In this document: one piece after another, positions 8,545-63,625 of the stretch | Layout of the letters: every line of letters starts with the position of its first letter | Numbering within the stretch: the first letter of the stretch is position 1 | From: Escherichia coli | GTDB taxonomy: Bacteria > Pseudomonadota > Gammaproteobacteria > Enterobacterales > Enterobacteriaceae | NCBI RefSeq assembly: GCF_003790525.1 | Contig: NZ_CP033635.1 | Length of the DNA stretch: 64,000 bases | Strand: one strand, 5' to 3' | The notes under the pieces: model-generated | The model's database searches: none | Told to the model about the DNA's origin: nothing | The model's input: the letters and a program-made list of their open reading frames with translations, nothing else | Translations under genes and position numbers: made by a program

Positions 8545-10787
<2,243 letters not shown>

Positions 10788-58133: not shown

Positions 58134-59330
58134 ATGCTAAAAGTGTTATTGCTCTTTGTTTTGCTGATTGCGGGGATCGTGGTTGGCCCGATGATTGCCG
58201 GTCATCAGGGGTACGTATTGATTCAGACCGACAACTACAATATCGAAACCAGCGTCACTGGCCTCGCGATTATTTTGATTCTGGCGATGGTAGTGCTGTT
58301 TGCCATTGAGTGGCTACTGCGGCGGATCTTCCGCACAGGCGCGCACACCCGTGGGTGGTTTGTCGGACGTAAGCGTCGCCGTGCCCGTAAGCAGACCGAA
58401 CAGGCGCTGCTGAAACTAGCGGAAGGCGATTATCAGCAAGTTGAAAAGCTGATGGCGAAAAATGCCGATCACGCTGAACAACCGGTGGTGAACTATCTGC
58501 TGGCTGCCGAAGCCGCGCAACAACGCGGTGATGAAGCACGCGCCAACCAACATCTGGAACGCGCAGCGGAGCTGGCCGGCAACGACACAATTCCGGTAGA
58601 AATCACCCGTGTACGTCTGCAACTGGCCCGTAATGAAAACCATGCTGCACGCCACGGCGTGGATAAGCTGCTGGAAGTTACGCCACGCCATCCGGAAGTA
58701 TTACGTCTGGCGGAACAGGCGTATATCCGCACTGGTGCATGGAGTTCGCTGCTGGATATCATCCCATCAATGGCGAAAGCCCACGTTGGCGATGAAGAAC
58801 ATCGTGCAATGCTGGAACAACAGGCATGGATTGGCCTGATGGATCAGGCGCGTGCCGATAACGGTAGCGAAGGTTTGCGTAACTGGTGGAAAAACCAAAG
58901 CCGGAAAACGCGTCATCAGGTGGCGTTACAGGTGGCAATGGCGGAACACCTTATTGAGTGTGATGACCATGACACCGCCCAGCAAATTATCATCGACGGC
59001 CTGAAACGCCAGTATGACGATCGCCTGCTGCTGCCGATCCCGCGTCTGAAAACCAATAACCCGGAACAGCTGGAAAAAGTGCTGCGCCAACAGATCAAAA
59101 ACGTGGGCGATCGCCCGTTGTTGTGGAGCACACTGGGTCAGTCGCTGATGAAGCACGGCGAATGGCAGGAAGCATCGCTCGCCTTCCGCGCGGCGCTGAA
59201 ACAACGTCCGGACGCCTACGATTACGCATGGCTTGCCGACGCGCTGGACAGACTGCACAAACCGGAAGAAGCCGCAGCGATGCGTCGCGATGGCTTGATG
59301 CTGACCTTACAGAATAACCCGTCACAGTAG
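58134..59330 (+). CDS. hemY: HemY (TPR-containing inner-membrane protein of the hem operon)
   Basis: 398 aa, N-terminal TM helices, TPR-like repeats. Confidence 0.9.
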   Translation: MLKVLLLFVLLIAGIVVGPMIAGHQGYVLIQTDNYNIETSVTGLAIILILAMVVLFAIEWLLRRIFRTGAHTRGWFVGRKRRRARKQTEQALLKLAEGDYQQVEKLMAKNADHAEQPVVNYLLAAEAAQQRGDEARANQHLERAAELAGNDTIPVEITRVRLQLARNENHAARHGVDKLLEVTPRHPEVLRLAEQAYIRTGAWSSLLDIIPSMAKAHVGDEEHRAMLEQQAWIGLMDQARADNGSEGLRNWWKNQSRKTRHQVALQVAMAEHLIECDDHDTAQQIIIDGLKRQYDDRLLLPIPRLKTNNPEQLEKVLRQQIKNVGDRPLLWSTLGQSLMKHGEWQEASLAFRAALKQRPDAYDYAWLADALDRLHKPEEAAAMRRDGLMLTLQNNPSQ

Positions 59331-59340
59331 TTCTTTCTCA

Positions 59341-59362
59341 CCCGGAGGCAAGCACCTCCGGG
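59341..59362 (+). terminator. Hairpin CCCGGAGG-CAAGCA-CCTCCGGG after hemY
   Basis: Perfect 8-bp GC-rich stem 10 bp after the hemY stop. Confidence 0.5.
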
Positions 59363-59377
59363 ACCTTTCTGATACAT

Positions 59378-59584
59378 AAAAAAACGCCTGCTCTTATTAC
59401 GGAGCAGGCGTTAAAACAGGTCTGTATGACAACAAGTGGGTGCTTCACTCAACGTTGTGTCCATGGTGTCTGATGAGGCATAAGCGACATCTGTCAGTGG
59501 ACGATAAGCACCGTAAACGGCTCTGCGTCATTCCGGAGTTTATGAGGCACTAAGGCGAACATAAGAGATGGAATGAGCATCTAC
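59378..59584 (-). ncRNA. glmZ: Small regulatory RNA GlmZ (SraJ/RyiA), regulator of glmS
   Basis: Minus-strand sequence GUAGAUGCUCAUUCCAUCUCUUAUGUUCGCC...CGCCUGCUCCGUAAUAAGAGCAGGCG-U7 matches my memory of GlmZ, including the intrinsic terminator; lies in the expected hemY-aslA intergenic region. Confidence 0.8.
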
Positions 59585-59993
59585 TCGTTTATTATGCCAC
59601 AGAGAACCGGGAAATAACATCCCTTAACACTTGTTATGAGATAATTCTGTAATCCTCTTTGCTTCCTGAGTGAATATTTCTCCTGCGCACGATTCTACAC
59701 ATATATATAATGAATAATAAAATTCATTCAATTAATAACATATATATTAATTGCCGTTAAAACTAAAAACAGCATCAATAATCAACGCGATATAACATCA
59801 CCGCCTTACATATCACCTGCGCCAGAGGTAGGATTGAAAACGCTCTCCTGATTTTCCAATTCATTTTCTGGATAAATAAATAATTTATTTTTATCACTAT
59901 TATTTATGCAATCATCCTGTCAGGGAGAGGGATCTCAATTATCAATGCTTAATTACGTCAACATTTTGACGACATGAAACCGGAGCATTTTGC

Positions 59994-61649
59994 ATGGAAT
60001 TTTCGTTTTCACCCAAACTTCTTGTTGTAGCTGTCGCCGCCGCTCTTCCACTCATGGCCAACGCAGCAGATACCCCGTCAACCGCCACCGCACGCAAAGG
60101 CTTTGCCGGATACGATCACCCAAACCAGTATCTGGTTAAACCGGCGACCACTATTGCCGACAACATGATGCCGGTGATGCAGCATCCTGCACAAGACAAA
60201 GAAACCCAGCAGAAGCTGGCAGAACTTGAGAAAAAAACCGGTAAGAAACCGAACGTGGTTGTTTTCTTGCTGGATGATGTGGGCTGGATGGATGTTGGCT
60301 TTAACGGCGGCGGCGTGGCGGTGGGTAACCCTACACCAGATATCGACGCCGTTGCCAGCCAGGGGCTGATTTTAACTTCGGCGTATTCTCAACCGAGTTC
60401 TTCCCCAACCCGCGCCACGATTCTTACCGGACAATACTCCATCCACCACGGCATTCTGATGCCGCCAATGTACGGGCAACCGGGCGGTCTGCAAGGGTTA
60501 ACCACTCTGCCGCAGTTGCTGCACGATCAGGGCTACGTCACTCAGGCCATCGGGAAATGGCATATGGGGGAAAACAAAGAGTCGCAGCCGCAGAACGTTG
60601 GCTTTGATGATTTCCGCGGCTTTAACTCGGTATCCGATATGTATACCGAATGGCGTGATGTTCACGTCAACCCGGAAGTCGCCCTGAGCCCGGATCGTTC
60701 TGAATACATCCAAAAACTGCCGTTCAGCAAAGATGACGTTCATGCCGTGCGCGGCGGTGAACAGGAAGCCATTGCCGACATTACGCCGAAATATATGGAA
60801 GACCTGGATCAACGCTGGATGGAATATGGCGTTAAGTTCCTCGACAAGATGGCGAAGAGCGATAAGCCTTTCTTCCTCTACTACTGCACTCGCGGCTGTC
60901 ACTTCGATAACTACCCAAATGCGAAATATGCGGGTAGCTCTCCGGCGCGCACCTCTTACGGCGACTGCATGGTGGAGATGAACGATATCTTCGCCAATCT
61001 GTATAAAGCACTGGAGAAAAACGGTCAGCTTGATAACACGCTGATTGTGTTCACCTCTGATAACGGTCCGGAAGCCGAAGTTCCGCCGCACGGTCGCACG
61101 CCGTTCCGCGGTGCGAAAGGTTCTACATGGGAAGGCGGCGTTCGTGTGCCAACCTTCGTTTACTGGAAAGGCATGATCCAACCGCGTAAATCTGACGGCA
61201 TTGTCGATCTGGCGGATCTCTTCCCTACGGCGCTGGATCTGGCGGGGCATCCTGGGGCGAAGGTAGCGAATTTAGTACCGAAAACCACCTTTATCGATGG
61301 TGTGGACCAGACATCTTTCTTCCTGGGAACAAATGGTCAGTCTAACCGTAAGGCCGAGCACTACTTCCTCAACGGTAAACTTTCTGCTGTGCGTATGGAT
61401 GAGTTCAAGTATCACGTCCTGATCCAGCAACCGTACGCGTATACCCAGAGCGGGTATCAGGGTGGATTCACCGGCACAGTAATGCAAACGGCGGGATCGT
61501 CGGTGTTTAACCTGTACACCGATCCGCAGGAAAGCGACTCCATCGGCGTGCGCCATATTCCGATGGGTGTACCGCTACAGACCGAAATGCACGCGTATAT
61601 GGAGATCCTGAAAAAATATCCACCACGCGCGCAGATTAAATCTGACTAA
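59994..61649 (+). CDS. aslA: Arylsulfatase-like protein AslA (Cys/Ser-type sulfatase family)
   Basis: 551 aa, signal peptide, sulfatase signature region ([13 protein letters not shown]). Confidence 0.9.
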
Positions 61650-63188: not shown

Positions 63189-63265
63189 TGGTCGGCGAGA
63201 GAGGATTCGAACCTCCGACCCACTGGTCCCAAACCAGTTGCGCTACCAAGCTGCGCTACTCGCCG
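63189..63265 (-). tRNA. proM: tRNA-Pro (anticodon UGG)
   Basis: 77-nt cloverleaf on the minus strand ending CCA; anticodon loop uuUGGga; T-arm GGTTCGAATCC. Confidence 0.9.
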
Positions 63266-63306
63266 AAATACTGCTTTTTGAATTTTTAGTTCAATTCTTT
63301 AAAGTC

Positions 63307-63394
63307 GTGGTGCGAGGGGGGGGACTTGAACCCCCACGTCCGTAAGGACACTAACACCTGAAGCTAGCGCGTCTACCAATTCCGCCACCTTCGC
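63307..63394 (-). tRNA. leuT: tRNA-Leu (anticodon CAG), long variable arm
   Basis: Minus strand GCGAAGGTGGCGGAATTGGTAGACGCGCTAGCTTCAGGTGTTAG...CACCA; boundaries +/-1 nt. Confidence 0.9.
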
Positions 63395-63414
63395 ATTGTC
63401 ACAACTTCTAATAA

Positions 63415-63491
63415 TGGGGTGGCTAATGGGATTCGAACCCACGACAACTGGAATCACAATCCAGGGCTCTACCAACTGAGCTATAGCCACC
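63415..63491 (-). tRNA. hisR: tRNA-His (anticodon GUG) with extra 5' G(-1)
   Basis: Minus strand GGTGGCTATAGCTCAGTTGGTAGAGCCCTGGATTGTGATTCCAG...CCCCA. Confidence 0.9.
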
Positions 63492-63548
63492 ACTACAAAT
63501 CTTGTTACGCGGTATTACTACCACCGCAGCTCAAGCGCCGGGACTAAA

Positions 63549-63625
<77 letters not shown>

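Follow-up and report, generated by a model that had tools for sequence, protein, structure and literature searches.

Identification of the small RNA gene glmZ in the hemY–aslA intergenic region of an Escherichia coli strain

In the stretch of E. coli DNA analysed here (64 000 nucleotides, referred to throughout as the window), the genes hemY and aslA are separated by 663 bp (59331..59993), and the question that this spacer raises is what, if anything, it encodes. The initial annotation, made from the sequence alone, had proposed that it carries the small RNA GlmZ on the minus strand at 59378-59584, within a hemY–aslA non-coding interval of some 660 bp that an annotation of open reading frames would leave empty. 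The measured interval agrees with that estimate, the flanking reading frames are identified as hemY and aslA by their near-identity to the K-12 proteins (Table 1), and the SMS-3-5 record has no feature anywhere in the spacer.

A cmscan search of the whole window against Rfam 15 returned the family RF00083 (GlmZ_SraJ) on exactly the proposed coordinates and strand, 59378..59584 (minus), with a score of 218.4 bits against a gathering score of 60 and an E-value of 3.4e-56; the match runs from end to end of the model, covering positions 1-214 of 214. Read on the minus strand from 59584 to 59378, the sequence opens with GUAGAUGCUCAUUCC and closes with GCAGGCGUUUUUUU, and in what follows nucleotide n of GlmZ corresponds to window coordinate 59585 - n. 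Rescanning in E-value mode gave no second RNA family in the hemY–aslA spacer, all matches other than GlmZ having E-values of about 0.1 or worse. When aligned with K-12 (NC_000913.3, 3986432..3986638), the 207 nt showed no mismatch, the central stem-loops included, and the neighbourhood is also that of the K-12 gene (SraJ/RyiA, b4456, RF00083), with hemY convergent and aslA divergent. By comparison, the remaining 456 bp of the spacer differ from K-12 at 39 positions, counting a 15-bp indel, and the coding sequences at 58 of 1197 bases (hemY) and 91 of 1656 bases (aslA); at the substitution rate of the flanks, the probability of finding no substitution across 207 nt is approximately 4e-5. The 25 kb of the window that were compared (39001-64000) are 100% identical to SMS-3-5 and to at least seven other genomes. 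From its sequence, we take the locus, with a probability of roughly 97%, to be the glmZ gene of an E. coli strain that is identical to SMS-3-5 in this region.

The small RNA so identified, an activator of the synthesis of GlmS, an enzyme for cell-wall precursors, is already known, thoroughly characterized and ordinary. Its recognition accounts for the 207 nt of the RNA and about 40 nt of promoter in a 663-bp gap that is otherwise unexplained, and it matters for annotation only, as it brings no new biology: glmZ is one of the best-studied small RNAs of bacteria, yet it is left out by the standard RefSeq/PGAP annotation, and among the matches listed no PGAP-annotated E. coli record had any feature at the position of glmZ or of glmY. 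The K-12 RefSeq record does draw the gene, as a feature of 172 nt (3986432..3986603) that is 35 nt short and ends just before the terminator hairpin. In the original sRNA screens of 2001, the value of 172 nt was reportedly a size estimate. The feature conflicts with the 207 nt given by Rfam and by the literature for the primary transcript (PMC2267818; PMC4152352), and its origin was not found in PMC4152352 or by a literature search on SraJ/RyiA.

Table 1. Location of glmZ, its predicted elements and its neighbours in the window.
Feature	Coordinates	Strand	Basis and remarks
hemY	58134..59330	+	ORF list; 398 of 399 translated positions (stop included) as in K-12 HemY; annotated hemY in SMS-3-5; convergent with glmZ
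G+C-rich 8-bp hairpin, CCCGGAGG...CCTCCGGG	59341..59362	+	Fold of 59331-59420; begins 11 nt past the hemY stop codon
glmZ primary transcript, 207 nt	59378..59584 (nt 1 = 59584, nt 207 = 59378)	-	RF00083 full model; identity to K-12
Terminator U-tract, nt 203-207	59382..59378	-	Pattern scan
Rho-independent terminator hairpin, nt 173-202	59412..59383	-	11 pairs, 7 of them G-C; pattern scan, MFE fold, Rfam consensus
glmS-pairing block 2, nt 163-169, GACCUGU	59416..59422	-	RNAduplex
glmS-pairing block 1, nt 150-157, UUGUUGUC	59428..59435	-	RNAduplex; published pairing
RapZ/RNase E processing site, approximately nt 151-153	59434..59432	-	Inside block 1; placed from PMC6602413
Single-stranded linker, nt 147-172	between stem-loop 2 and terminator	-	Fold and Rfam consensus
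Stem-loop 2 (central stem-loop), nt 73-146	59439..59512	-	Rfam consensus; published RapZ-binding element shared with GlmY
Stem-loop 1, nt 1-65	59520..59584	-	Rfam consensus, MFE fold, RNAalifold
Minimal sigma-70 promoter, -40 to -1	59585..59624	-	Mapped by hand against the published analysis
Inferred -10, CATAAT (-12..-7)	59596..59591	-	Extended -10, with TGG ahead at 59599..59597
Best -35 candidate, ATGTTA	59620..59615	-	18-bp spacer; 3 of 6 consensus matches
aslA	59994..61649	+	ORF list; 542 of 552 translated positions (stop included) as in K-12 AslA; annotated aslA; divergent from glmZ

All the differences between this locus and that of K-12 lie outside the RNA: position -23 has a G, a 15-bp unit that is present twice in K-12 occurs once, and substitutions are scattered through the part of the spacer nearest to aslA. 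Gopel et al. reported that glmZ is transcribed in E. coli from one constitutive sigma-70 promoter, to which GlrR does not bind; in their deletion and mutation analysis the sequence upstream of -40 proved dispensable, -40..+1 sufficient and the -10 essential, the -35 having three matches to the consensus (PMC3045617). A promoter had been proposed at 59585-59650 in the initial annotation; the promoter does lie inside that interval, but the part that is sufficient by experiment extends only over 59585..59624. The window shares its -10 and -35 elements with K-12, and its -40..+1 region is identical save for G in place of A at 59607 (-23), a position in the promoter spacer that is part neither of the -10 or -35 hexamer nor of the TG motif; the exact hexamers, given in Table 1, we infer from the sequence. 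A simple scan for the sigma-70 consensus flagged no promoter at 59585-59650, which is explained by a weak -35 combined with an extended -10. Upstream of glmZ in the window there is no sigma-54 element, the best match having six mismatches, and no GlrR-like or IHF-like site was found in the spacer, so that by sequence the promoter belongs to the Escherichia-type class (a single sigma-70 promoter, with none of the sigma-54, GlrR or IHF sites), in agreement with PMC3045617.

These upstream differences might be taken to mean that the copy is silent or decaying, for example that its promoter has been weakened by the change at -23 or by the nearby 15-bp indel. The spacer does differ from K-12 in both respects, the indel lying near -86, and also in the substitutions at 59680-59716, but position -23 is in none of the promoter elements, the indel falls in the region upstream of -40 that is dispensable for transcription (PMC3045617), and the body of the RNA is unchanged. 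Moreover, of 5426 complete E. coli genomes, 5424 carry the 207 nt of glmZ with an identity of 99% or more, whereas the whole spacer reaches at least 99% identity in only 167 of them and is 90-95% identical in 3455. An RNA that is unchanged here and kept in essentially every E. coli genome must be under strong purifying selection, which is incompatible with decay, and we therefore regard a decaying glmZ as very improbable.

The spacer itself has several features of its own. The start codon of aslA is 409 bp upstream of the glmZ start site, and the description of the interval as AT-rich holds for approximately 59600-59900, with a G+C fraction of 0.28-0.31, but not for glmZ itself (0.47-0.48). 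The 15-bp unit, present twice in K-12 (ACTCAGGAAGTTATT-ACTCAGGAAGC, the repeat containing ACTCAGGAAG), occurs once in the window, the indel being placed at 59670/59671, some 86 bp upstream of the glmZ start within the divergent aslA–glmZ control region; close by, a stretch of 37 bp (59680..59716) is densely substituted, with 10 changes relative to K-12. The published deletion analysis suggests that the indel and the substituted stretch are irrelevant for glmZ. A sigma-70-like site, TCTACA-18-TAAAAT (59694..59723, plus strand), was seen as a sequence pattern facing aslA, about 270 bp before its start codon, and the list of open reading frames includes one of 40 codons with a GTG start (59775..59897, minus strand) in the AT-rich spacer.

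The RNA has the anatomy expected of GlmZ, with two 5' stem-loops, a single-stranded linker and a terminator, for which the hairpin and U-tract named in the initial annotation were both found independently by the pattern scan. Its minimum free energy is -60.8 kcal/mol, with a z-score of -3.3 against dinucleotide shuffles. Projection of the Rfam consensus structure onto the window sequence leaves five non-standard pairs, within the inner part of stem-loop 1, to which we return below.

Urban and Vogel reported that nucleotides 150-157 and 163-169 of GlmZ base-pair with the 5' UTR of glmS, thereby opening a hairpin in which the Shine–Dalgarno sequence is masked, the pairing being proven by the compensatory mutants G155C/C-27G and C165G/G-36C (PMC2267818). 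The site and the terminator that follows it are the same in the window as in K-12. Because glmS is approximately 73 kb away and outside the window, its leader was taken from K-12 and from SMS-3-5, in which glmS is present and the leader is identical from -109 to -1. For the duplex between GlmZ nucleotides 148-171 and glmS -45..-19, RNAduplex gave -19.2 kcal/mol, with nucleotides 150-157 paired to -29..-22 and nucleotides 163-169 to -40..-34; both mutationally proven pairs, G155:C-27 in block 1 and C165:G-36 in block 2, are contained in it. Only 1 of 2000 shuffled linkers did as well, the linker duplex was the best of any 24-nt window in the whole RNA, and the result was unchanged with the SMS-3-5 leader. 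This linker-only calculation replaced one with the full-length RNA against glmS -100..+20, where the value of -51.3 kcal/mol was equalled or bettered by 121 of 300 shuffled targets, duplexfold taking no account of intramolecular structure.

The linker also separates GlmZ from its paralogue GlmY (RF00128, GlmY_tke1; clan CL00011). The 5' two-thirds of the two RNAs are homologous (103 of 147 nt identical), and GlmY shares with GlmZ the central stem-loop that is bound by RapZ, but GlmY has 184 nt, a different terminator and no glmS-pairing linker, and its gene lies between glrK (qseE) and purL. It might be supposed that the locus encodes this decoy, which would only sequester RapZ and would not pair with glmS, since sequence and fold are alike in the two, 77.5% of the aligned columns are identical between the window RNA and K-12 GlmY, and cmscan suppresses an overlapping, lower-scoring match from the same clan. 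However, it was the GlmZ model that outscored its clan rival, identity to K-12 glmZ is 100%, and in the linker (nucleotides 148-172), where the glmS-pairing site lies, only 11 of 25 positions are identical to GlmY. The best duplex of GlmY with the glmS leader has -15.0 kcal/mol, compared with -19.2 kcal/mol for GlmZ, K-12 glmY lies between glrK and purL rather than between hemY and aslA, and a separate glmY is present in 5425 of the 5426 genomes. With the pairing linker in place and hemY and aslA as its neighbours, the locus does not belong to GlmY_tke1, and sequence identity and synteny refute that assignment, the chance of which we consider negligible.

As glmZ, the locus would take its place in a circuit for which identity, anatomy, conservation, covariation, pairing potential and synteny come from the present analysis, whereas transcription, binding, cleavage and the dependence on glucosamine-6-phosphate (GlcN6P) come from the literature. 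The constitutive sigma-70 promoter with its extended -10 would yield the 207-nt RNA. When GlcN6P is scarce, Hfq would help the full-length RNA to pair with the left half of the glmS 5' UTR hairpin, which hides the ribosome-binding site; the opened hairpin would allow GlmS to be translated and GlcN6P to be replenished. When GlcN6P is ample, the adaptor RapZ would bind the central stem-loop and recruit RNase E, which would cut within pairing block 1, at approximately nucleotides 151-153, and so inactivate the RNA, while the paralogue GlmY would serve as a decoy that titrates RapZ. For K-12, the 207-nt RNA, its binding to Hfq and its processing by RapZ and RNase E to approximately 151 nt are all published (PMC2267818, PMC4152352, PMC6602413): RapZ binds the central stem-loop common to GlmZ and GlmY, of which the latter acts as a decoy (PMC4152352), and the RNase E that it recruits cleaves 6-7 nt 3' of stem-loop 2 (PMC6602413). 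The processed RNA of approximately 151 nt is inactive (PMC4152352), because the cut falls inside block 1. The other members of the circuit, glmY and rapZ, are not encoded in the window; in the collection of 5426 complete E. coli genomes, 5425 have glmY and 5425 have rapZ, SMS-3-5 not being named among the matches listed.

In order to compare the RNA across species, one genome per species was scanned for AACGTTGAGTGANGCNCC, which gave 120 loci, and of these 90 passed a filter for GlmZ-like sequences, which required a GCTCAT motif at the 5' end and a T-run at the 3' end. Three of the passing loci are from metagenome-assembled genomes labelled only as Proteobacteria or as uncultured Pluralibacter, and the rest are from named Enterobacterales. 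The 30 loci set aside comprise six in which the match was too close to the end of the locus and 24 that failed the filter, the latter being chance matches in other phyla together with Raoultella (L099) and Thorsellia (L104). Removal of duplicates left 89 distinct sequences, which with the window make up the 90 rows of the alignment (A1). The heuristic for the 3' end cut 14 homologues (Serratia, Brenneria, Silvania, Moellerella and Morganella) at a T-run before the terminator, and these rows count as gaps in the terminator statistics. The locus of Erwinia endophytica (L051:9554-9778, plus strand) is also in A1 in spite of its GlmY-like look; it has the AACGTTGAGTGA motif, a GlmY-like 5' end (GCAGTGGCTCATTCACC) and a perfect sigma-54 promoter, and it has no glmS-pairing blocks. 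It is probably glmY or a GlmY/GlmZ intermediate, and as 1 row in 90 it leaves the counts unchanged.

The GlmZ RNAs of Salmonella, Yersinia, Serratia, Enterobacter and most other Enterobacterales have the same fold as that of the window and a nearly invariant glmS-pairing site, with G155, U156, C157, A162 and G163-G168 conserved in at least 90% of the A1 rows, the window included. When the Rfam structure was projected via the window onto A1, 88.5% of the cells were paired, compared with 35-40% when the 3' partners were slid by 1-3 columns. Changes on both sides of a pair were seen at 12 pairs, in 141 cells against 47.6 in shuffled alignments, and none of 500 shuffles reached as high a value. 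Across genera the terminator evolves in a compensatory manner, 8 of its 11 pairs having changed on both sides. The outer stem of stem-loop 2 is 100% paired, and at two of its pairs U-A is exchanged with C-G, in 37 and in 6 of the 90 sequences.

In the inner part of stem-loop 1, the alignment and the Rfam structure part company. The inner helix drawn by Rfam (A1 columns 19-22 with 56-60, corresponding to nucleotides 19-22 with 40-44) is paired in only 26.7% of cells, whereas a register shifted by one base (nucleotides 13-53, 14-52 and 15-51) is fully paired, shows compensatory changes and is backed by RNAalifold and by the MFE fold. Exchange between U-A and C-G is seen at 13-53 in 14 of the 90 sequences and at 14-52 in 4 of them. 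The Rfam family structure for GlmZ may therefore have this part of stem-loop 1 in the wrong register, in which case its SS_cons line would need correcting there, and we have placed no reliance on that helix.

As in the window, glmZ is convergent to hemY in the other Enterobacterales: all 79 loci that gave a HemY match encode it downstream of glmZ and on the opposite strand, and in the remaining 10 the DNA available downstream does not exceed 1500 bp. In the window, the end of hemY is 47 bp from the 3' end of glmZ, and the intervening hairpin (59341..59362), which is followed by a weak T-run, is separated by 20 bp from the terminator hairpin that glmZ has on the opposite strand; to judge from the predicted fold, it is probably the hemY terminator, forming a convergent pair with that of glmZ. 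That the locus consists of nothing but such convergent terminators, so closely spaced, and of regulatory DNA for hemY and aslA, the AT-rich region being the aslA upstream region, with the GlmZ match incidental, is refuted by a covariance match that reaches beyond the terminator to span all 214 model positions and by some 170 nt beyond it (stem-loops 1 and 2 and the linker) that are conserved and covary in genera without aslA, and we give this reading virtually no credence.

The feature in which the glmZ of the window departs from most of its homologues is the promoter. The majority of the homologues are preceded by the sigma-54 element TGGCAC-N5-TGCA, located at -27, matched with no more than two mismatches and often overlapping an AATAAT -10, whereas the window, E. 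albertii (L008) and another Escherichia (L028) have TGgCATAAT and no sigma-54 element (5-6 mismatches). These promoter classes have already been published, the sigma-70-only type being that of the Escherichia and Klebsiella group (PMC3045617), and our survey reproduces them on independent data. Upstream of glmZ, aslA is found in only four loci, from two Escherichia (L008 and L028), Superficieibacter and Pseudocitrobacter (L009 and L040 being the other two), and all four are without a good sigma-54 match (3-5 mismatches). One could speculate, although we consider it rather unlikely, that the insertion of aslA–aslB beside glmZ replaced an ancestral GlrR/sigma-54 control region; in that case, transcription of glmZ would have lost its link to envelope signalling through QseE/QseF (GlrK/GlrR). 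A link between the acquisition of aslA and the promoter class may already be covered in PMC3045617.

Some minor observations were made in passing. Searches of the E. coli genome collection with the spacer, with glmZ alone, with the glmS leader and with rapZ each gave one match on a record typed as a plasmid, which may reflect a mis-assigned replicon or a large chromosomal segment on a plasmid. Elsewhere in the window, Rfam family RF02757 ('Erse small RNA') gave a full-length match at 10182..10433 (minus strand), scoring 318.7 bits where the gathering score is 138. Transfer of coordinates to SMS-3-5 shows this match to be the final 252 nt of ubiJ, up to the stop codon of the coding sequence; the RF02757 model therefore lies wholly within a protein-coding gene, and its score may simply reflect conservation of the coding sequence. 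Finally, four tRNA genes (63189..63625, minus strand), for Arg(CCG), His(GTG), Leu(CAG) and Pro(TGG), form a cluster that fits the argX-hisR-leuT-proM operon next to aslB.
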